Part shown: positions 6,406 through 38,802 of the stretch, one piece after another
Position numbering within the stretch: position 1 is the first letter of the stretch
Layout: every line of letters begins with the position of its first letter
NCBI GenBank assembly: GCA_016713875.1
Contig: JADJOI010000002.1
Location: forward strand, 17,092 to 81,091
Length of the DNA: 64,000 nt
Reading direction: 5' to 3'
Source of the DNA: Flavobacteriales bacterium
Lineage (GTDB): Bacteria > Bacteroidota > Bacteroidia > Flavobacteriales_F > PHOS-HE28
The notes under the pieces: model-generated
Databases searched by the model: none
What the model was told of the DNA's origin: nothing
Seen by the model: only the letters and a program-made list of their open reading frames with translations
Made by a program: the position numbers and the translations under genes

Positions 6406-7524
6406 ATGACCGGACGACCCCTGCATGTGCTTGTCGTGGGCCAGACCCCGCCACCGTTCGGAGGCCAGGCGGTGATGATCCAGGCCATGCTTGAGGGGCG
6501 GTACGAGGGGGTGGTGCTCCATCACGTGCGCATGGCCTTCTCGGAGGACATGGAAAGCGTGGGCCGTTTCCAGCCGCGCAAACTGTGGGTGCTCTTCACC
6601 ACCGTGCTGGCCGTGTGGCGCGCCCGGATCGTGCATCGCACCCCGGCGCTGTACTATCCGCCCAGCGGACCCAACAAGGTGCCCGTCCTGCGCGACCTGG
6701 TCCTGCTTTGCGCTGTGCGTTGGATGTTCCGTCTCACGGTGTTCCACTTCCACGCCAGTGGGGTATCCGGTTTCGCCCCGCAACTACCCCGGGCACTGCG
6801 CCCCTTGTTCCGCATCGCCTACGGACGTCCTGACCTGGCCATCCGCACGGCGGAGCAGAACCCCGATGACGGGGCGGCGTTGGGCGCGCGGCGGTCGATC
6901 GTCGTGCCCAATGGTGTGCCGGACGGGCGCGGCACGGTGGCCGAGCGGACGGCGGCACCGGGCGAGCCGCTCGTGGTGCTCTTCACCGGGGTGCTGATCC
7001 CCAGCAAGGGAGTGACGGTGCTGCTGGAGGCTTTCAGGTTGCTCCGTGGCCAGGGGGTGAACGCGCGGTTGGAGCTGATGGGCAAGTGGGGTGATGCGAC
7101 CTTCCGGGAGCAATGCGAACGCTTCGTAGCACTGCACAGGCTTGCGGACCGGGTACGGTTCCTCGGTGTGAAGCGTGATGCGGAGAAGCTCGCTCACTTC
7201 GCCGGTTGCGATATCTTCTGTTTCCCCTCGCACTTCGAGGCGGAGAGCTTCGGATTGGTGCTCACCGAGGCCATGCAGTTCGCGAAGCCTGTGGTGAGCA
7301 CTCGCTGGCGTGGCATCCCGTCGGTGGTGGAGGAGGGTGTCAACGGCTTCCTGGTGCCGGTGGAGGACCCCGGTGCAGTGGCCGACCGCGTGGCCCGGCT
7401 GTCGGCCGATCCGGACCTGCGTCGTACGATGGGCGAGGCGGGCCGGCGCATCTTTGAACAGCGATTCACGTTAGAACGGTTCCATCGGCGCATGGAGGAG
7501 GCCTTCCTCAGCCTGCGTCCCTAG
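6406..7524 (+). CDS. family 4 (GT-B) glycosyltransferase
   Basis: N-terminus MTGRPLHVLVVGQTPPPFGG and the E-x7-E region EAESFGLVLTEAMQFAKPVVSTRWRGIPSVVEEGVNGFLV. The ORF track start at 6211 would overlap the divergent gene, so ATG 6406 (or 6373) is preferred. Confidence 0.85.
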   Translation: MTGRPLHVLVVGQTPPPFGGQAVMIQAMLEGRYEGVVLHHVRMAFSEDMESVGRFQPRKLWVLFTTVLAVWRARIVHRTPALYYPPSGPNKVPVLRDLVLLCAVRWMFRLTVFHFHASGVSGFAPQLPRALRPLFRIAYGRPDLAIRTAEQNPDDGAALGARRSIVVPNGVPDGRGTVAERTAAPGEPLVVLFTGVLIPSKGVTVLLEAFRLLRGQGVNARLELMGKWGDATFREQCERFVALHRLADRVRFLGVKRDAEKLAHFAGCDIFCFPSHFEAESFGLVLTEAMQFAKPVVSTRWRGIPSVVEEGVNGFLVPVEDPGAVADRVARLSADPDLRRTMGEAGRRIFEQRFTLERFHRRMEEAFLSLRP

Positions 7525-7535
7525 TGCGAACGACC

Positions 7536-8537
7536 ATGCGAGTCCTTGTCACCGGCGGGTCCGGCTTCATCGGCACCAACCTCGTGAAGCTCCTGCTCGA
7601 TGCGGGGGAGGAGGTGCTCAATGTGGACTGGAACCCACCACTGGACCCAGGGCAGCGGCCGACCTGGCGGGAGCTCGACATCATGGATGAACAGGCGCTC
7701 GCCGATGCACTGGCCACGTTCAGACCCACACACGTGGTCCATCTGGCGGCACGCACCGATACCGATGAGCAACGGGACCTGAACGCCTACGTGCAGAACC
7801 ACGAAGGCACCCGCCGCGTGCTGAACGCGGTGAAGGCCTGCCCATCGGTGGAGCGCATCATCGTCACCAGCACGCAGTTCGTCTGCGAGGCGGGCCACCA
7901 GCCCAAGGACGACCTGGATTTCAAGCCGTACACTCTATATGGTGAGTCCAAGCGGCTCACCGAGATGGTCACGCGCGAGGCGCGGCTGTCCTGCACCTGG
8001 ACCATCATCCGGCCCACCACCATCTGGGGCCCGTGGAGCCTGCGCTACCGCGATGTGATGTTCAAGGTGATGCGGAAGGGTCTCTACTTCCATCCTTCAA
8101 GGCGCAAGGTGATCCGGTCGTACGGCTATGTAGGCAACGTGGTATGGCAGATCGACCGCATCCTTCGGCTGCCGGCGGAACGGATGAACGGCCGTGTGTT
8201 CTATGTGGGCGACCCGCCCTTCGACCTGCGCACGTGGGTGGAGGCGGTGTCCAAGGCGCTCACCGGCCGTCCCGTGCGGTACATCCCCACGTGGGCCGTG
8301 CGCACCCTGGCGGTCACCGGTGACGTGCTCAAGGGGGTGGGGTTGCCGTTCCCGATCACCAGCGGCCGCTTCCGGTCGATGACCAGTGACTACATCACGC
8401 CCATGGACCGCACGATCGAGGCGCTCGGCCCCGCGCCGTTCAGTGTGGAGGAGGGTGTGAAGGCGATGGTGGCGTGGTACGACGACGGCAGTGAGCGCAT
8501 CGCGCATCCGGTCCGCAACGTGGTGGGCCATGGCTGA
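7536..8537 (+). CDS. NAD-dependent sugar epimerase/dehydratase (SDR family)
   Basis: Rossmann motif MRVLVTGGSGFIGTNLV; length and context fit. GTG 7524 is an alternative start. Confidence 0.85.
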   Translation: MRVLVTGGSGFIGTNLVKLLLDAGEEVLNVDWNPPLDPGQRPTWRELDIMDEQALADALATFRPTHVVHLAARTDTDEQRDLNAYVQNHEGTRRVLNAVKACPSVERIIVTSTQFVCEAGHQPKDDLDFKPYTLYGESKRLTEMVTREARLSCTWTIIRPTTIWGPWSLRYRDVMFKVMRKGLYFHPSRRKVIRSYGYVGNVVWQIDRILRLPAERMNGRVFYVGDPPFDLRTWVEAVSKALTGRPVRYIPTWAVRTLAVTGDVLKGVGLPFPITSGRFRSMTSDYITPMDRTIEALGPAPFSVEEGVKAMVAWYDDGSERIAHPVRNVVGHG

Positions 8538-9363
8538 GCGGCTCCTGATCAGTCCGGGCGCTCTGCCCAAGCGGGAGGTGGTCGGCGCGGGCATCACCCT
8601 GGGGAGCTTCGACGACCATGTGCGGATGATCGCGGCGCTCGGTGCCGCGCATCGCTCTTCGTATGTCTGCTGTGTGAACGCGCACATGGCGGTGGAGGCG
8701 GCCCGCGATCCCGCGTTCGCGGCGGTGGTGAACAGCGCCGACCTGGCCACGGCCGATGGCATGCCCCTGCTGCGCTGCCTGCAATGGATCGGCGGTGAGC
8801 GGCAGGACCGAGTGGCGGGCAACGACCTGATGCCGGCCCTGCTGGACAGGGCGGCGGAGCAAGGGCTCTCGGTCTATCTTTATGGGGGGCGCGAAGAGGT
8901 GTTGAAGAGGATCCGCGAACGGGCCGGGCGCGAACTGCCCGCCTTGCGCATCGCCGGCATGCACGCCCCGCCGTTCCGGGCGTTGAGCGATGCGGAGATG
9001 AAGGCCGATGCGGACCGGATCAATGCCAGCGGGGCGCACATCGTGATGGTATCGCTGGGCTGTCCCAAGCAGGAACGGTGGATGGCCGCCATGCGCCCTT
9101 CGGTGAACGCGGTGATGCTGGGGCTTGGAGGCGCGTTCCTCCTCTATGCCGGTGTGGACACGCGGGCGCCGAAGTGGATGCGCGACCTCTCGCTCGAATG
9201 GCTCTACAGGCTGGCGCTCGAGCCCGGTCGCCTGTGGAAACGATACCTGGTGACCAACACCCTGTTCCTCGTCCTCGCGATGAAGGCCGGCTGGCAGCGG
9301 ATGCTCGGACAGCGCACCGGGCGCATCGCTCCGCTGGCGGAAGCAACGGGGCTCATCGGATGA
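8530..9363 (+). CDS. WecB/TagA/CpsF family (GT26) glycosyltransferase
   Basis: ADGMPLL, VYLYGG, SLGCPKQERWM and LGLGGAF motifs. ATG 8530 overlaps the upstream stop (ATGGCTGA). Confidence 0.85.
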   Translation: MAERLLISPGALPKREVVGAGITLGSFDDHVRMIAALGAAHRSSYVCCVNAHMAVEAARDPAFAAVVNSADLATADGMPLLRCLQWIGGERQDRVAGNDLMPALLDRAAEQGLSVYLYGGREEVLKRIRERAGRELPALRIAGMHAPPFRALSDAEMKADADRINASGAHIVMVSLGCPKQERWMAAMRPSVNAVMLGLGGAFLLYAGVDTRAPKWMRDLSLEWLYRLALEPGRLWKRYLVTNTLFLVLAMKAGWQRMLGQRTGRIAPLAEATGLIG

Positions 9364-9435
9364 GCGTCGTTCCGACATCCAACGCTGCCTGGAAGCGACT
9401 GCTTTCGACGAATCAAAGGATTTCTTCGACAAAAC

Positions 9436-9466
9436 TTGACAGGGGATGGTGGCTGGTCTAGTTTTG
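9436..9466 (+). promoter_or_regulatory. candidate promoter (-33 TTGACA, -7 TAGTTTTG) for the sugar transferase gene
   Basis: TTG at 9436-9438 and an exact TAnnTTTG at 9459-9466, with 20-nt spacing, about 46 nt upstream of ATG 9513. Confidence 0.5.
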
Positions 9467-9512
9467 ACCTCCCCTTACGACCGGCCAGGAAGCGACCAGG
9501 TGACCCCCATCA

Positions 9513-10664
9513 ATGAGTGACGGTATCCCGCCCCTGCGCATGGAAGCGAACGACCCCGGCAAACTGACCGCCCGCCCCGAAGGCATGGGCGACCTGGCGG
9601 CCTTGCTCCGATCCAAGCGGTTGTCCCTTCAACAGGTGGGATCAGGGCTGAGCAAGGTGCTCACCCTGGAGCCGCTCACCTCGGTGAAGGACCTCATCAT
9701 CGTGGGCGAGGGTCCTGCGGCCGAAGAGATCTTCCAGTACTGTCAGGACCAGACCGTGCGCGGCTACCGGTTCCGCGGCCTGTTCAATGACCAGGAGGTG
9801 CGGGGTCCCTTGGGCGCACATCGCCTGGGTGATGTGGAGGCCGCCAAGGCCTTCGCGGTCCAGAACCGCATCGACATCGTGTACTGCGCCCTTCCGGGCA
9901 CGCGCCGGGCGGATATCACGGACCTCATGGAGTTCTGTGAGCGCAACACCATCCGGTTCCGGGTGATCCCTAGCGTGGACAGCTTCATCCCGGTGGTGAA
10001 GACCACGGACCTGGAATTCCACGGGTCGGTGCCCGTGAGCAAGCTTCGGCGCGAGCCGCTGGACCATCGGGCGAACCGGGCTTGGAAACGCACCTTCGAC
10101 ATCGTCTTCTCCGCCCTGGTGATCCTGCTGGTCTTCAGCTGGCTTTTCCCCATCCTGGCTCTATTGGTGAAGCTTTCGTCCCCGGGTCCGGTGTTCTTCC
10201 GGCAGCAGCGCCTTGGTCGCGACAACAAGGAGTTCGCCTGCTGGAAGTTCCGGTCCATGCGCGTGAACGCCGAAGCGGACACCAAGCAGGCCACCAAGAA
10301 CGATCCACGCGTGACCCGCGTGGGGGCCTTTCTGCGCAAGAGCAATCTGGACGAGATGCCCCAGTTCTTCAATGTGCTGATGGGGCAGATGAGCGTGGTG
10401 GGCCCCCGCCCGCACCCCCTGCGGCTGAACGACCAGTACAGGGACATCATCGACAAGTACATGGTGCGCCATTTCGTGCGCCCGGGCATCACGGGTTGGG
10501 CGCAGGTGAACGGTCTCCGTGGGGAGACCCGCACGCCGGAGCTGATGGAGCGCCGCATCGAACTGGACGTGTGGTACCTGGAGAACTGGAGTTTCTGGCT
10601 GGACGTGCGGATCGTGGTGAAGACCGTGACGAACATGCTCGGAAAGGACCCCAACGCCTACTGA
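9513..10664 (+). CDS. polyprenyl-phosphate glycosylphosphotransferase (initiating sugar transferase, WbaP/WcaJ-like)
   Basis: KRTFDIVFSALVILL...SPGPVFFRQQRLGRDNKEF..WKFRSM...DEMPQFFNVLMGQMSVVGPRP is the bacterial sugar transferase core. Confidence 0.9.
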   Translation: MSDGIPPLRMEANDPGKLTARPEGMGDLAALLRSKRLSLQQVGSGLSKVLTLEPLTSVKDLIIVGEGPAAEEIFQYCQDQTVRGYRFRGLFNDQEVRGPLGAHRLGDVEAAKAFAVQNRIDIVYCALPGTRRADITDLMEFCERNTIRFRVIPSVDSFIPVVKTTDLEFHGSVPVSKLRREPLDHRANRAWKRTFDIVFSALVILLVFSWLFPILALLVKLSSPGPVFFRQQRLGRDNKEFACWKFRSMRVNAEADTKQATKNDPRVTRVGAFLRKSNLDEMPQFFNVLMGQMSVVGPRPHPLRLNDQYRDIIDKYMVRHFVRPGITGWAQVNGLRGETRTPELMERRIELDVWYLENWSFWLDVRIVVKTVTNMLGKDPNAY

Positions 10665-28939: not shown

Positions 28940-29836
28940 CTACTCAACGCACTTCAGAATTGATGAGGCGAAGTTGTCGCAATCTAGTTCCAGATTAGAG
29001 AATGATGGCTTCGCAAACGGGATGACACCTGCTTGGGCGATGTAGAAATCTACATGACCAATCTCATGGAGAACCAAGAATAGCAGCGTATCCTCAATTC
29101 TATGGGACCAAGCGCCGTAGGGCGTGAACGCCTCGGTTGGCATTGCGAAATAGCTCGAGTTGAATGCAAGGGGGTAAATGAGGATTTGAGCTATGATCTC
29201 TTGCTCCGCCTGATTCGCATTTACCCAAGCCCCCCCAGTACTATCGCAACTATCGTTTCTGTTTGTGGTTCGTCCCGAAATGCACGTATAGGTATTAGTT
29301 GACCAGTTAAAATTACCCGCATACGGGAAAGTACGCTTCTTAGAGTTCAGTATTACCTCTGCGTAAGTGTCCGCCTTACGTTGAGCATTGCAGTACTCAA
29401 TGGATATTTTGAAATCAATCTTCTTCGAGCAATTATTCTCACCTAAACAATAGATCATTCTGCGCCAGAAGCGTCTCTTCCCGTTGATAACATTTGTGTG
29501 AGTGAAGCGACCGACATCATTAAGGGATATGTCCTGGTCGCGTTCGTTGGGATCTAAACGCAATAGTAAGCCTGCTAAAACATCGGGATAGCTGGATACA
29601 ATCTTGTTCCACGCCTTGTCAAAGGCCTCACCCACCACCGCCTCTCTCATGTCCCTGTGATTGATTAATCCCAAACGATCGTCACTGGGGTAGTATTCAG
29701 GCGTGCTTGAATACTCCGCTTGGTTCTGGAAGCTACGCGTTGGTCCAATTAAGAAAGGCACTTTCGACTGTGCTGAAACGTAATACGATTGGCCCAAAAG
29801 CAAGACAAAGGTCAAAGCTCTTGCTGTCATGGTCAC
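28940..29836 (-). CDS. secreted cysteine-rich protein with C-terminal HExxH zincin-like motif
   Basis: Signal peptide MTMTARALTFVLLLGQSYYVSAQ and multiple cysteines. LVLHEIGHVDFY is followed about 25 aa later by ELDCDNFASSIL (an HExxH...E..xD.FA pattern as in M48/M78-type peptidases). Low GC: sampled lines give 30-58%. Confidence 0.55.
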   Translation of the reverse strand: MTMTARALTFVLLLGQSYYVSAQSKVPFLIGPTRSFQNQAEYSSTPEYYPSDDRLGLINHRDMREAVVGEAFDKAWNKIVSSYPDVLAGLLLRLDPNERDQDISLNDVGRFTHTNVINGKRRFWRRMIYCLGENNCSKKIDFKISIEYCNAQRKADTYAEVILNSKKRTFPYAGNFNWSTNTYTCISGRTTNRNDSCDSTGGAWVNANQAEQEIIAQILIYPLAFNSSYFAMPTEAFTPYGAWSHRIEDTLLFLVLHEIGHVDFYIAQAGVIPFAKPSFSNLELDCDNFASSILKCVE

Positions 29837-30786
29837 TTAAAATTTGCTGCACGCATTACCCTCACCGGCTGGTTGGCTCTGCATTGGCTGCTCGTAGGAG
29901 TAGCCTGCGTCATCGCTGCCTTACGACTTGCCGCGTTGAGCAACTTCTTCTCCCGCTCATGTGCCTGTTCCCAAAGTTGCTTATATCTAGCTTTCGCGAA
30001 AGCGCGTTGCTGTGCTCTGTGCTGCTCGTAGTTAAGTCGATTCAATTCATCCAAGTACGTCGTCGGAAGCTTCCAAGCTGCTCGGTCAGGTGTTCTCAGG
30101 CCGACCGCCCTTGCCACATGGTCTATATGATCGACGCAATTTTCCCTCACATACCCGTACGACTCTGACTCGGTTCGGGCGACAGACCAAATCCGACTTG
30201 CTTCATCACGGGTAATCACCTTTCGGAAATACTCCTGCTCATTCACAGCAGAGTTGGAATCGTCGAAGCGACGGCCATTCGGGAAATCTCCGACCTTGTT
30301 GCTGCGGGTGGTGCTGCCATCCGACCATGAACGCTCGATGAACCAATACGCATGACCTACCCATGAGTCGTTTCCTTTTCCAGAGAAGCCCCCGAAGACC
30401 AATGCTTCCCCAATAAGATGCTTTGGGGGCGGGCTTGTAGAATGTTGGTTGTTCATGTTGAGCCTTGTGGGCTGTGCGGTCGGGGTGGTCCTCGGTGTTC
30501 CAGCCTCAACTGGTTGGGAGTCGTTCGCTGATGGTCTTTCGTACCTGTACTCAGTGGTCTCGCCTGCCGGTATCCTTCGCTCAATCTCGCGATTGTAGCG
30601 ATCGGCCTGTGCCTTCTGCTCTTTAGTTAACCTACCTTGACTTTCAAGGTACGCTTGGTGCTCCTTCTCGATGGCATGCGCACCTTCTTTCTGCTCGTTG
30701 GTGAGGTGATCCGGAATCTGAGCCTGGCAGACTAGGCATGAAGCAAGCATTGTTGCAACAGCGATGGGTTGGCTAAACGGTTTCAT
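29833..30786 (-). CDS. lipoprotein with coiled-coil flanks and a possible permuted papain-fold (LRAT/NlpC-P60-like) core
   Basis: Lipobox MKPFSQPIAVATMLASC. VGHAYWFIE is followed about 70 aa later by YVRENCVDHIDHV (His then NC-x-H/D order as in LRAT-like enzymes). Its stop overlaps or abuts the start of the downstream gene. The domain call is weak. Confidence 0.45.
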   Translation of the reverse strand: MKPFSQPIAVATMLASCLVCQAQIPDHLTNEQKEGAHAIEKEHQAYLESQGRLTKEQKAQADRYNREIERRIPAGETTEYRYERPSANDSQPVEAGTPRTTPTAQPTRLNMNNQHSTSPPPKHLIGEALVFGGFSGKGNDSWVGHAYWFIERSWSDGSTTRSNKVGDFPNGRRFDDSNSAVNEQEYFRKVITRDEASRIWSVARTESESYGYVRENCVDHIDHVARAVGLRTPDRAAWKLPTTYLDELNRLNYEQHRAQQRAFAKARYKQLWEQAHEREKKLLNAASRKAAMTQATPTSSQCRANQPVRVMRAANFK

Positions 30787-31029: not shown

Positions 31030-31251
31030 ATGGCACCCGCATCGCCAACCGGTAGTGACTTCAAGATCAAGTTCGATGGGCAGCAGCATCAGGTCGATGC
31101 GAACGTGCTGATCAGCAGCTTGATCCACACGACCGCGGTCGTTCAAGAGGTCAACCGTAGCCTGAACAGCGGGAAGAAAATCGAGATTAAGGTCAAGGCG
31201 CTCGAGCCGGGCAGCTTCCTGGTTCACATCGAGTTGGTCGAGAAGGCGGTG
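31030..31251 (+). pseudogene. 5' fragment (about 74 codons) of an unknown gene, truncated by the IS630 remnant
   Basis: MAPASPTGSDFKIKFDGQQHQVDANVLISSLIHTTAVVQEVNRSLNSGKKIEIKVKALEPGSFLVHIELVEKAV runs in frame straight into transposase sequence at about 31252. Confidence 0.5.
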
Positions 31252-31519
31252 GACAGCCTGCGCGTCCACCATAGCCAACCTGTCCAAGACTGGGTCGAGG
31301 AACATGACCAGGAGATCGAACTGTTCTTCCTGCCCAGCTACTCCCCCGAACTGAATCCGGTGGAGATCGCCAACGCCGACTTGAGGTGACCACCTGCGCA
31401 CCGGCGCGCAAGAAAGGCAAGCTCCACAAGGTCGCTTCAACACACCTGCGATCCTTGCAACAAGATCCCGATCGCATCGCCAGCTTCTTCCAAAAAGACA
31501 CCGTCCGTTATGCAGCTTG
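31252..31519 (+). mobile_element. IS630-family transposase 3' remnant (frameshifted)
   Basis: D(S)LRVHHSQPVQDWVEEHDQEIELFFLPSYSPELNPVE is the third-acidic-residue region of IS630/Tc1 DDE transposases. After a frame change near 31386 the tail RKKGKLHKVASTHLRSLQQDPDRIASFFQKDTVRYAA continues to TGA at 31517-31519. The N-terminal roughly three quarters of the transposase is absent. Confidence 0.75.
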
Positions 31520-31559: not shown

Positions 31560-33050
31560 TTATACATAGTCGAAAGCCTTCCAAAGCCCTCGGTGTACAA
31601 TGATATCGCTGCTCAATACAAGACGAGCGCTGCTGCTATAGTGCCTCGACACGGGCCTTAGTTGACCATCAGCCTTTACTATCAAGTTTCCGATAGCACT
31701 CGCATCAAACAGGAGTTTCAGAATATGCGTAGCATGTTCTTCTGTAATTCCCAAGCTCTCCATCTGGTCAGTAAATTTTTTAGATTGAAACCGATTTCTT
31801 CCAAAAAACCTCAGTGATTGTATGGTTTTTTCGATGTCGGTTTCAGATATATGCCCTTTGAGTTCATCTTCCACCTCATGAACGAAGTAATTTTCAGAAT
31901 ATTTGGTCAATCCAGTGATTATTTCACTGGTAGTAATCGGAATATTATCTCCCGTCGAACTTTCCTGAATGAACTTAAGGGCCATGATTAAATCTCGAGG
32001 AGTATTGCGCGTATGATAGAGAATGTATGCCGCCGTCAACCTTTCCCTTCCCTGCACCTCGATGATTTTTTTAAAATATATGTTGAAAATGTTGACTTCA
32101 CTTTGTAGCGTAGCGGCAGCTCTGTAGTTGGCTAATTTAATGAGCCTACTCTTATAGATATCTCTATGGTCGTCATGCCAATCTAGAACTAGAGAATAGG
32201 TGTTGCGAATTGCGTTGGAATTGTATAGTGGAAGTTTGTCAAACAAGTCAGTACGACAAGCTATAATTATTTTGAATGGATTACTTCCTTCTCGAAATTG
32301 CTGATTCAAATGACTGCACTCACTAACTAGAGCGGATATCGAGTCGTAAGAATTCTTTTCAGAAAATAGTGCTCTGTCTAATCCGTCAATAAGTATGTAA
32401 TGTTTGTTTTCGCTTTTTTGCTGCAGAAGAATAGTCATGGCATAGTCTACAAGCTTTGAGAAATTAATGTCCTTATTTTGATTCGTATTTCGATCATACT
32501 TGAATGTATTAACTGTGGCATTTACCCCAAACAATGCATCAAATTCTATGCTTGGTCCATGTAATATGGATTTCGAGTCTCTAGTTTGCTGAACGATGTC
32601 GTCGAACTTAGTTGCGGGGGCAAAGCCAATTTGTCGTAATCCTTGCATAAACTTGTCATAGTCAGAATTGGGACTTCTTCCTTGGTCTTCGTAAAGGGAC
32701 CAGAGAAGTTGAATTACGAGAATCCAAGTCCATGATTTTGGTAGGGTTTGTTCCTTTCCTATTGAACCAGAGAAACCAGCTGATTGAAAGTTCGAGAATG
32801 GAAACTGATTTAGGTCATTAAAAGTAATTTGCTTATCGTAGGCCTGAGTACTTATGATTTTCTGTATGAGCGTCGACTTGCCTGATCCCTTTGTCCCCAG
32901 AATCAAAAACTTTGATGATCCGAGCAGAGCGCCTAGATATCCACTCTCATCAAAGTATGCAGTCTCAACCAAACTTGGCGATTCGACTTTCTCAATTTCT
33001 GCGCTATGCTCTCCAAATACTATGTTCTTGAATGGCGCAATAGTACTCAT
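31560..33050 (-). CDS. orphan KAP/NACHT-like P-loop NTPase (STAND-type), no recognisable effector domain
   Basis: Walker A LILGTKGSGKST (32871-32897), Walker B HYILIDGLDRA (32376-32399), IIIACRTD and HTRNTPRDLIMALKF motifs. No signal peptide. GC is about 38-40% in sampled lines, against about 70% for the host. Confidence 0.7.
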   Translation of the reverse strand: MSTIAPFKNIVFGEHSAEIEKVESPSLVETAYFDESGYLGALLGSSKFLILGTKGSGKSTLIQKIISTQAYDKQITFNDLNQFPFSNFQSAGFSGSIGKEQTLPKSWTWILVIQLLWSLYEDQGRSPNSDYDKFMQGLRQIGFAPATKFDDIVQQTRDSKSILHGPSIEFDALFGVNATVNTFKYDRNTNQNKDINFSKLVDYAMTILLQQKSENKHYILIDGLDRALFSEKNSYDSISALVSECSHLNQQFREGSNPFKIIIACRTDLFDKLPLYNSNAIRNTYSLVLDWHDDHRDIYKSRLIKLANYRAAATLQSEVNIFNIYFKKIIEVQGRERLTAAYILYHTRNTPRDLIMALKFIQESSTGDNIPITTSEIITGLTKYSENYFVHEVEDELKGHISETDIEKTIQSLRFFGRNRFQSKKFTDQMESLGITEEHATHILKLLFDASAIGNLIVKADGQLRPVSRHYSSSARLVLSSDIIVHRGLWKAFDYV

Positions 33051-33100: not shown

Positions 33101-33151
33101 CTAGATCACCACAGGGTGTCCGCCAAACCTCCACTCGCTCCCCCACACCCC
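33101..33151 (+). repeat. intergenic repeat family A, copy 1 (internally deleted)
   Basis: CTAGATCACCACAGGGTGTCCGCCAAACCTCC is joined to ACTCGCTCCCCCACACCCC. It aligns to both ends of copy 5 (38327-38460). Confidence 0.7.
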
Positions 33152-33493
33152 CTGATCAACTACCTCAACCGCCGCTTCGTGCCCGTGAGCAATAGCGCCA
33201 ATGGCGAGTTATCGCCCGAAGTGGTGTTCCACTACCAACAGACCGGCCGTATCGTCACGTGCCGCTATTCCGGTGGCCGCATCGTCAGCGGGCAGTTTAT
33301 CGCCTTGGTGGATGCCGAGGGCCGCCTGGACATGCGCTACCACCAAGTGAACGACCGCGACAAACTGAAGACGGGCGTGTGCCGGTCAACGCCGGAGCTA
33401 CTCCCCGATGGGCGCATCCGCCTGCACGAGGCCTGGCGCTGGACCAGTGGGGATGGGTCGAGCGGGAGTTCGGTGTTGGAGGAGGTGCGGTGA
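33116..33493 (+). CDS. small conserved protein, paralog A (family often annotated N-acetylglutamate synthase-like; function unknown)
   Basis: About 88-90% nucleotide identity to 38461-38802. The codon homologous to the paralog B ATG is CTG (33152-33154), and the only in-frame start is GTG 33116, inside repeat A. Confidence 0.6.
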   Translation: MSAKPPLAPPHPLINYLNRRFVPVSNSANGELSPEVVFHYQQTGRIVTCRYSGGRIVSGQFIALVDAEGRLDMRYHQVNDRDKLKTGVCRSTPELLPDGRIRLHEAWRWTSGDGSSGSSVLEEVR

Positions 33494-38326: not shown

Positions 38327-38460
38327 GACGACTCCAGGGTGTCCGCCCAGACCTTCGCCATGACAGTCCTCTGCACTCTGGCGGGCGTCCCTGTGGCTCG
38401 TAGCCATTCGGGCGTACACATCGCTGTGATCTCGGACCTTCACACGCTCCCCCACACCCC
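38327..38460 (+). repeat. intergenic repeat family A, copy 5
   Basis: GACGACTCCAGGGTGTCCGCCCAGACC...CTGGCGGGCGTCCCTGTGGCTCGTAGCC...ACACGCTCCCCCACACCCC ends at the paralog B start codon. Confidence 0.7.
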
Positions 38461-38802
38461 ATGATCGACTACCACGACCGCCGCTTCTTCCCCGTGAGCA
38501 ACAGTGCCAACGGAGAGGTATCCCCCGAAGTGGTCTTCCACTACCAGCAGGCCGGCCGTATCGTCACGTGCCGCTATTCCGGTGGCCGCATCGTCAGCGG
38601 TCACCTGATCGCCTTGGTGGATTCCGAGGGCCGCCTGGACATGCGCTACCACCAGGTGAACGACCGCGGCGAACTGATGACCGGTGTGTGCCGGTCAACG
38701 CCGGAGCTTCTCCCCGATGGGCGCATCCGCCTGCACGAGGCATGGAGATGGACCAGTGGGGATGGATCGAGCGGGATCTCGGTGTTGGAGGAGGTGCGTT
38801 GA
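38461..38802 (+). CDS. small conserved protein, paralog B (same family as 33116-33493)
   Basis: MIDYHDRRFFPVSNSANGEVSPEVVFHYQQAGRIVTCRYSGGRIVSGHLIALVD... with an intact ATG start. Confidence 0.75.
   Translation: MIDYHDRRFFPVSNSANGEVSPEVVFHYQQAGRIVTCRYSGGRIVSGHLIALVDSEGRLDMRYHQVNDRGELMTGVCRSTPELLPDGRIRLHEAWRWTSGDGSSGISVLEEVR

Follow-up and report, generated by a model that had tools for sequence, protein, structure and literature searches.

The window studied here is a 64-kb stretch of one contig from a metagenome-assembled genome (MAG) of a Flavobacteriales bacterium. At positions 31560-33050 its reverse strand carries an uninterrupted frame of 496 codons, a complete coding sequence (CDS) for a P-loop ATPase. 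An earlier note, made from the letters of this DNA, had described the gene as an orphan KAP/NACHT-like NTPase that matches no named system and as a candidate for stand-alone defence. We found that the gene is a full-length, intact and horizontally acquired member of the NCBIfam family NF047389, "P-loop ATPase, Sll1717 family". The profile matched with 260.8 bits (E = 2.7e-77; curated cutoff 75) and from end to end, residues 12-493 of the protein aligning with positions 1-454 of 454. An Sll1717-like P-loop profile was among the searches that the earlier note had proposed, and this family proved to be the right one. The description as an orphan does not stand, since the curated family, when clustered at 50% identity, comprises about 3,700 clusters, and a distant branch of it is DS-41, a single protein that protects Escherichia coli against phages. 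The gene is thus a divergent new member of a catalogued family that has a validated though distant defence representative, and it probably belongs to a known kind of single-gene defence and is no new system. The gene and the elements of its product (positions in amino acids, aa) are as follows.

31560..33050, reverse strand: complete CDS, 496 aa, Sll1717-family P-loop ATPase (NCBIfam NF047389, phrog_13260, AlphaFold2 (AF2) model)
32910..33050, reverse strand: N-terminal conserved helical segment before the P-loop strand, aa 1-47; motif F-G-x3-A-x2-E...P-x-L
32871..32897, reverse strand: Walker A GTKGSGKST, aa 52-60; invariant G52, K54, G55, G57, K58
32406..32798, reverse strand: soluble helical insert, aa 85-215, after strand 2 and before Walker B; disordered loop 164-193; holds the hydrophobic helix WTWILVIQLLWSLY; invariant W107
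32370..32399, reverse strand: Walker B YILIDGLDRA of the NACHT-like hhhhDGLD type, aa 218-227; invariant D222, G223, D225; the Pfam NPHP3_N match spans aa 191-266
32247..32270, reverse strand: strand 4 and sensor-1 position, IIIACRTD, aa 261-268; invariant R266
31860..32036, reverse strand: helical lid, aa 339-397, with the T-P-R-D motif at 350-353 (GxP / sensor-2-like); invariant R348, P351, R352, D353; helices 339-345, 351-364 and 374-397
31650..31844, reverse strand: C-terminal winged helix, aa 403-467, H-E-H-H-E-E according to the secondary-structure order in the AF2 model

A low-GC gene of a large family

The gene has a GC content of 39.8% compared to 65.0% for the window, and the drop follows the limits of the ATPase open reading frame (ORF) almost exactly. 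GC at third codon positions (GC3) is 0.394 in the ATPase gene, whereas carB and the avidin-like and Fib_succ_major genes nearby reach 0.79-0.92. These values bear out the foreign, low-GC character that the earlier note had assigned to the gene. Its figure of about 70% GC for the neighbours does not apply close by, as the immediate flanks lie at 60-65% and the higher value is reached only further away. A GC content of 65% is itself unusually high for the order Flavobacteriales, with which the source MAG is labelled; the type IX secretion system (T9SS)-type Por_Secre_tail domains and the Fib_succ_major domains encoded in the window are consistent with Bacteroidota.

All motifs that had been quoted for the protein were located, at residues 52, 107, 218, 261 and 350. 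The hydrophobic stretch starts at residue 107 and spans 107-120, and TPRDLIMALKF starts at residue 350. In an alignment of 57 family members, 30 columns are invariant and the window protein has retained all of them, including K58, D222, D225, R266 and P351-R352-D353. The ATPase therefore looks functional, as judged from its sequence. Conservation extends into the N-terminal segment, where G13, E20, P25 and L27 are invariant and F12, A17 and G31 nearly so, and where helices 17-23, 25-30 and 38-44 were modelled with a predicted local distance difference test score (pLDDT) of 87-95.

The family is large and widely distributed. A word-indexed search of 5.8 billion proteins returned 161 homologs, the nearest of which is 47% identical to the window protein while the remainder share about 30-34%. 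A profile search of 1.84 billion representatives found 3,686 clusters at 50% identity, and 801 of these matched with E <= 1e-30. Members occur in many bacterial phyla as well as in methanogens, Thermoplasmata and Methanomassiliicoccales. The window protein shares the length class (about 480-500 aa) and all invariant motifs of NF047389 and shows no structural difference from it; by identity it is a divergent member, and the family name conveys no function. A second full-length match, to phrog_13260 of the PHROGs collection (E = 5.9e-51), likewise belongs to a family whose function is not annotated there.

Matches to broader domain families were weak. In Pfam, the window protein reached 25.8 bits with NPHP3_N (threshold 24.8), confined to the C-terminal third of that model, and 18.7 bits with NACHT (PF05729; gathering score 26.7), confined to the P-loop region; AAA_16 and others stayed below their own thresholds. 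Weak matches among the 57 aligned members were to AAA_16 (36 members), NPHP3_N (26), AAA (19) and NACHT (17, at E <= 0.01), and further ones to nSTAND1/3/6 and ORC-CDC6-like. A profile search of the PDB sequences gave generic P-loop matches only, at E > 0.04.

A predicted ORC/Cdc6-STAND-type fold

An AF2 model built from the 57-member alignment reached a mean pLDDT of 89.7 and a predicted template modelling score (pTM) of 0.89. Along the chain it places the N-terminal helices, the Walker A strand and helix, strand 2, an insert of about 130 residues, the Walker B strand, the strand that carries R266, the lid and the winged helix. Foldseek searches of the PDB with this model returned the archaeal Cdc6/Orc1 structure 2qby_B as the top match (E = 5e-6), followed by two AAA+ proteins of archaea, SSO1545 and PAB2304, and by BrxC, a BREX ATPase; NLRs from plants (NRC3) ranked lower. 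TM-scores were modest (0.35-0.52, at a sequence identity of about 10-13%) and the relationship is therefore one of architecture. From the model we conclude that the protein is probably a minimal AAA+ switch of the ORC/Cdc6-STAND type, in which a soluble helical insert interrupts the nucleotide-binding domain and a lid and a winged helix follow. The Walker B and sensor-1 motifs appear to be of NACHT style, and the roles of their residues are proposed by analogy. R266, for instance, may represent the sensor-1 arginine of STAND proteins, given its position at the end of the modelled strand 259-266.

The AF2 model and the Foldseek matches show the core arrangement of STAND proteins, a nucleotide-binding domain followed by a helical lid and then a winged helix. 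As the earlier note had put it, the product is a cytoplasmic, STAND/NACHT-like P-loop NTPase that lacks an effector domain and a transmembrane (TM) segment. It shares with the STAND NTPases of immunity (NACHT/NB-ARC; Avs, bNACHT) this core, the DGLD Walker B, an arginine at the sensor-1 position and the weak Pfam matches to NACHT, NPHP3_N, AAA_16 and nSTAND, and two of its relatives carry a TIR domain. In contrast to these proteins of about 700-2,000 aa, the window protein has fewer than 500. With about 30 residues after the winged helix and about 47 before the P-loop strand, it holds neither C-terminal sensor repeats nor an effector, and none of the Avs or NLR models of PADLOC matches it. ORC/Cdc6 proteins, the "ATPase_2" proteins SSO1545 and PAB2304 and BrxC are its best structural neighbours and have the AAA+ domain, the lid and the C-terminal winged helix in common with it. 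The insert of about 130 residues is foreign to those folds, and the locus has neither an origin nor a BREX context.

The insert lies where KAP proteins bear their TM helices. This position between Walker A and Walker B, the carriage on mobile elements and the UniRef label of one homolog ("KAP NTPase domain-containing") could point to a KAP-family defence protein comparable to PifA, EF_KAP or the validated TM-containing KAP proteins. KAP proteins fused to uncharacterised regions do defend against phage (PMC13552941, PLoS Biol 2026), and their link to small serine recombinases (PMC13552941) is echoed by resolvases as the commonest recurrent neighbours of the Sll1717 family. However, Pfam KAP_NTPase (PF07693) did not match the window protein even at E <= 1, nor any of the 57 aligned members at E <= 0.01 (0/57), and the curated assignment is to another family. 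A TM segment is also absent: the best 19-residue Kyte-Doolittle mean is 1.32 and falls in the C-terminal domain, outside the insert, and the stretch 107-120 forms part of a helix (99-120) that was modelled within the globular domain at pLDDT >90. The large uncharacterised C-terminal region of KAP proteins is missing as well. The membership in the KAP family that the earlier note had considered is thus largely refuted, and we regard a KAP-type protein as barely credible.

An apparent single-gene module on mobile elements

The ATPase gene lies between insertion sequence (IS) debris and a mosaic of repeats and toxin-antitoxin genes, as the earlier note had reported. The neighbouring features are the following.

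28940-29836 and 29833-30786, reverse strand: overlapping gene pair (ATGA overlap), 298 aa and 317 aa; GC 0.47 and 0.53
31030..31250, forward strand: truncated small unrelated gene (5' part), joined in frame to the IS630 remnant; homologs at 75-82% identity
31251..31520, forward strand: IS630-family transposase remnant, C-terminal part, frameshifted; DDE_3, E = 2e-13, aa 74-118 of the ORF 31030-31389
33116-33493 and 38437-38799, forward strand: avidin-like genes with 87% identical proteins, bracketing a 5-kb stretch

On the downstream, low-coordinate side, about 40 bp separate the end of the IS630 remnant from the stop codon of the ATPase gene; a second copy of the remnant was not found in the window. 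The 119-aa ORF at 31030-31389 on the forward strand is a chimera in which about 75 codons of the small gene run into the C-terminal IS630 (DDE_3) fragment. It is convergent with the ATPase gene and lies 171 bp from its stop. Intact, the small gene encodes about 100-125 aa, and homologs at 75-82% identity measure 83-125 aa. When the homolog P0264 was looked up (L094-L096), its contig broke off right at the intact small gene, a hint that a repeat normally abuts it. Beyond the chimera lie the overlapping genes for 317 aa and 298 aa and then carB. Both of their proteins have signal-peptide-like N-termini, both genes fall below the host GC of 0.62-0.65, and Pfam, NCBIfam, PADLOC and PHROGs held no family match for either. 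To judge from these sequence features, they appear to be a secreted pair that was acquired separately. The 298-aa protein holds a HEIGH zinc-protease-like motif near its C-terminus.

On the upstream, high-coordinate side, a divergent avidin-like gene begins 65 bp from the ATPase gene. Fib_succ_major and OmdA/YdeI genes and the toxin-antitoxin genes DUF433/DUF5615 and ParE lie between this gene and its duplicate, and the 5-kb stretch bracketed by the two may represent a segmental duplication or a recombination scar.

Besides the source MAG, five independent metagenome assemblies show the five-gene order 296 aa - 317 aa - chimeric ORF - ATPase - avidin-like without change. These stand among at least 22 contigs that bear the chimeric ORF, and one of them is part of a 2.9-Mb contig (L100-L105). 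The same 496-aa gene was called in four of the assemblies, and the fifth contig ends inside the gene. The insertion is therefore compositionally unameliorated yet fixed in the population, and the IS-scarred island is stable in the lineage. The earlier note had called the acquisition very recent. The composition agrees with this, whereas the presence of the same island in five other assemblies qualifies the recency.

A gene that adjoins IS debris and a truncated gene might be a non-functional relic of a past transfer that has stayed intact by chance, and a scan for promoters and terminators gave no informative signal, although the sigma-70 models it used are not designed for Bacteroidota. Against a relic speak the 1,491-bp frame, which has stayed open in AT-rich sequence where stop codons are frequent, the retention of 30 out of 30 family-invariant residues and the recurrence of the gene in the independent assemblies. 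We consider a relic very unlikely.

The truncated gene at 31030 had been put forward as a destroyed partner of the ATPase. In this case the ATPase would be one half of a two-gene system whose other half was lost in the IS630 event, and it would now be inactive or deregulated. The convergent truncated gene so close to the ATPase stop fits this idea, as do single loci at which an AbiJ-like or an NYN+OST-HTH gene adjoins the family member. We collected 79 family loci from species-representative genomes (L005-L083, the window included) and clustered the ORFs within 6 kb. No family of neighbours held a fixed position across the 79 loci. The largest clusters comprised serine recombinases or resolvases (7 loci), generic ABC ATPases (6), tyrosine integrases (4) and glycosyltransferases (4), followed by reverse transcriptases, YhcG nucleases and P450s in 3 loci each.

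Individual candidates fared no better. The gene at 31030 is a chimera of an unrelated small gene and an IS630 fragment; intact homologs of the small gene encode small proteins located away from Sll1717-family genes, and nothing similar recurs in the 79 loci. The AbiJ-like and NYN+OST-HTH neighbours do not recur in other loci or in fused proteins. The 298-aa and 317-aa genes show no similarity to the genes downstream of the closest homolog (P0002), nor to those of the other loci. DS-41, moreover, works as a single gene. The conserved partner that the earlier note had suggested looking for in homolog neighbourhoods was thus not found in this sample, and a broken two-gene system strikes us as highly improbable. 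In three Neisseria genomes (L024, L025, L076; at about 7123-9969), the family gene is preceded on its own strand by a gene for 948 aa that ends 32 bp upstream. This gene may encode a partner particular to that lineage, or a restriction-modification (R-M) protein or helicase. Overall, the family looks like a mobile single-gene module.

Mobility is reflected in composition. The family gene had a lower GC content than its flanks in 71 of 72 loci, by a median of 13 points (-13) and by more than 10 points in 46 loci. Defence genes are documented to have a low GC content relative to their genome (PMC13092281). That the family is AT-rich across phyla, even in an island fixed in its population, reflects either constant turnover from AT-rich donors or selection for AT.

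The genomic locations are varied. In Halotalea, the family member is cargo of an element with integrase, AlpA, Toprim and DUF927 genes, and in Chitiniphilus it lies in an AlpA-bearing islet with the AbiJ-like gene directly downstream. Other annotated neighbours include HicA/HicB genes and, in Acidiphilium, IS66 and helicase genes; in one Pseudomonas, the NYN+OST-HTH gene lies 103 bp upstream on the same strand. Searches with tblastn placed family copies on nine plasmids, of which five are conjugative. Among the conjugative or mobilisable carriers, an IncC plasmid of Vibrio has AbiE and a restriction enzyme close to the gene, and an IncF plasmid of Klebsiella has VapC and a recombinase there. 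On a Frondihabitans plasmid the gene is flanked by a type I R-M system on one side and on the other by a small serine recombinase, a class of enzymes that has been proposed as a marker of defence loci (PMC13552941). Klebsiella phage Kp4865-2 (Peduoviridae, P2-like; L098 5917-7428) carries a family member as a single-gene moron between tail-completion and baseplate genes. Phage P2 itself has the non-essential orf30 at the same position. All of the copies described here are members of NF047389, at 238-297 bits. Some members stand alone. In the Mameliella alba chromosome (L086 8001-9437) the gene lies between fabB (ketoacyl synthase) and fabA, with no mobile-element genes nearby save apparent phage-lysis genes (LysC, BubE) about 5 kb off, and another lone member follows gyrA. 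A DNA search with the member from a Klebsiella MAG gave no match to an E. coli counterpart of the window clade. This evidence from mobility and neighbours for a role in conflict is suggestive and falls short of conclusive.

A minority of family proteins is longer than 540 aa (22/261, about 8%), and those long members that were examined carry either additional domains, which lie N-terminal to the conserved aa 1-47 segment, or basic tails. Two members have an N-terminal TIR domain (P0191, P0195) and four have two to four tandem OST-HTH/LOTUS repeats (P0218, P0224, P0236, P0248). A cold-shock domain was found in P0075 by Pfam and recognised by eye in P0154 and P0187, and basic low-complexity C-terminal tails occur in P0205, P0245 and P0254. 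TIR is a classic immune effector, and the other added domains bind RNA or single-stranded nucleic acid.

The same contexts could be explained if the protein serves a mobile element: it would be an ATP-dependent protein akin to ORC/Cdc6 that binds DNA for the replication, maintenance or regulation of phages, plasmids and integrative elements, and it would have been left behind here when the element decayed. The best structural matches of both the window protein and DS-41 are origin-binding initiators (Cdc6/Orc1), the C-terminal winged helix would suit this function, and members are carried by a phage, by plasmids and by islands that bear integrases. Lone members such as those between fabB and fabA and after gyrA do not have element genes nearby, however, and the phage copy is a moron among tail genes, outside the replication module. 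The TIR fusions indicate a role in conflict, and the DS-41 branch protects against phage. We judge a service to the element to be unlikely.

DS-41 and a possible role in defence

DS-41 (WP_033812887.1; lab code AAA2) consists of one protein of 502 aa, comes from an E. coli strain of the ECOR collection and was validated in the DefensePredictor study (Science 2026; PMC13092281). Expressed alone in E. coli it reduced plaquing of BASEL phages up to about 10^3.6-fold, and its authors reported homologs as far as Halobacteria and an HHblits similarity to Avs1B (PMC13092281). Its link to the family of the window protein rests on NCBI and UniRef product names: relatives that share 45-87% identity with DS-41 bear the name "P-loop ATPase, Sll1717 family", and the 90%-identity cluster of DS-41 itself (E. 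coli, Enterobacter, Serratia) has the same name. Furthermore, two members of the window protein's family gave weak secondary matches to NF053860, "DS41_1_antiphage" (27-30 bits; cutoff 370).

The two proteins resemble each other in several respects. Both are encoded by single genes, are of nearly equal length (502 and 496 aa), have the same NCBI family name and have archaeal homologs. Their motifs are collinear, from the N-terminal AE.E..P through Walker A, the insert with its loop, Walker B (hhhhD-x-hD) and K..(I/V)R.D to (S/T)PR(D/E). The lid of the window protein is its best-aligning segment against the DS-41 clade (SPRELIKL there). An AF2 model of DS-41 (pLDDT 85.7) shows the same order of elements, including the helical insert with a disordered loop, an SPRE lid and the winged helix. 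As for the window protein, the top Foldseek match was 2qby_B, here followed by other Orc1/Cdc6 structures, CED-4 and Apaf-1, with NLRP3 also among the matches. The sensor-1 arginine of the window clade (CRTD), in contrast, is replaced by FLWxN in the DS-41 clade, and the phage phenotype is that of DS-41. We therefore treat DS-41 as the closest characterised relative, from a different clade, and the window protein not as its ortholog.

Several results weigh against extending a defence role from DS-41 to the window protein. Searches with PADLOC-DB v2.0.0, which includes Avs, bNACHT, mads and Menshen but is older than DS-41, gave no significant match to the window protein. The best match was mad8 (E = 0.0039), restricted to the P-loop. 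Among the 57 aligned members three matched mad8 weakly (3/57) and none matched another model. The NF053860 equivalog, with its cutoff of 370 bits, did not match the window protein even at E <= 1. Similarity between the clades is remote: cross-scores ranged from 3 to 38 bits overall, with 20-38 bits in two collinear segments for the hidden Markov model (HMM) of the window clade on DS-41-clade proteins and 3.3 bits for the DS-41-clade HMM on the window protein, and alignment of the clade profiles with hhalign gave P = 0.001 with a probability of 21% and 15% identity over 434 columns. Given sequences this distant, the function of the two clades may differ. The promoter and terminator scan described above lends no help to an active gene either. 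Many of the neighbours at family loci are housekeeping genes, in a scan of 137 nearest neighbours that yielded heterogeneous, aggregate counts. Finally, mutation of sll1717 in Synechocystis reportedly (J. Bacteriol., 2006) changes how reduced or oxidised the plastoquinone pool is, a phenotype outside defence that, if correct, would have to be reconciled with a defence role.

The last two points would fit a cellular regulatory or housekeeping role that is unrelated to conflict, for example in plastoquinone-pool redox or quinol oxidase activity, and several members do have purely housekeeping neighbours. The family is distributed patchily over bacteria and archaea, however, and its contexts vary. 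The anomalous GC in 71 of 72 loci, the carriage by phage and plasmids and the TIR domains of some members also argue against such a role, as does a nearest relative that is only 47% identical among 5.8 billion proteins. A housekeeping function therefore appears quite improbable.

On balance, we favour with some confidence the reading that the gene encodes an intact, mobile Sll1717-family AAA+ switch, most likely acting alone in anti-phage or anti-mobile-element defence, by analogy to DS-41. The stand-alone defence gene of the earlier note is thus plausible and probably right, considering the DS-41 branch and the single-gene behaviour of the family.

How such a protein might act can be sketched from its predicted architecture. 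At rest, the protein would be a nucleotide-bound monomer. A cue from the invader, which is proposed to be a nucleic acid because relatives add LOTUS domains, cold-shock domains and basic tails, would be bound by the winged helix or the insert, and binding would trigger ATP-dependent oligomerisation. In the TIR-fused relatives, oligomerisation would activate the NADase. For the effector-less core, assembly itself would be the output, either by occupying invader nucleic acid as ORC does or by consuming ATP. A bolder version holds that the window clade is functionally distinct from DS-41 and represents a minimal ORC/STAND hybrid that lacks an effector and directly senses RNA or single-stranded DNA of the invader, a capacity that relatives would extend by LOTUS, cold-shock and basic-tail modules. 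ATP-driven assembly on this nucleic acid would be the antiviral act, with no enzyme effector. We regard this version as rather unlikely.

With the assignment to the Sll1717 family, a "hypothetical protein" of a wastewater Bacteroidota MAG gains a specific family and a testable function. The family itself is large, spans bacteria and archaea and travels with phages, plasmids and islands as one AT-rich gene. Its lack of a partner, the fusions to nucleic-acid-binding and TIR domains and the ORC-like winged helix suggest where work on the mechanism of this effector-less STAND/ORC core of about 480 aa could begin.

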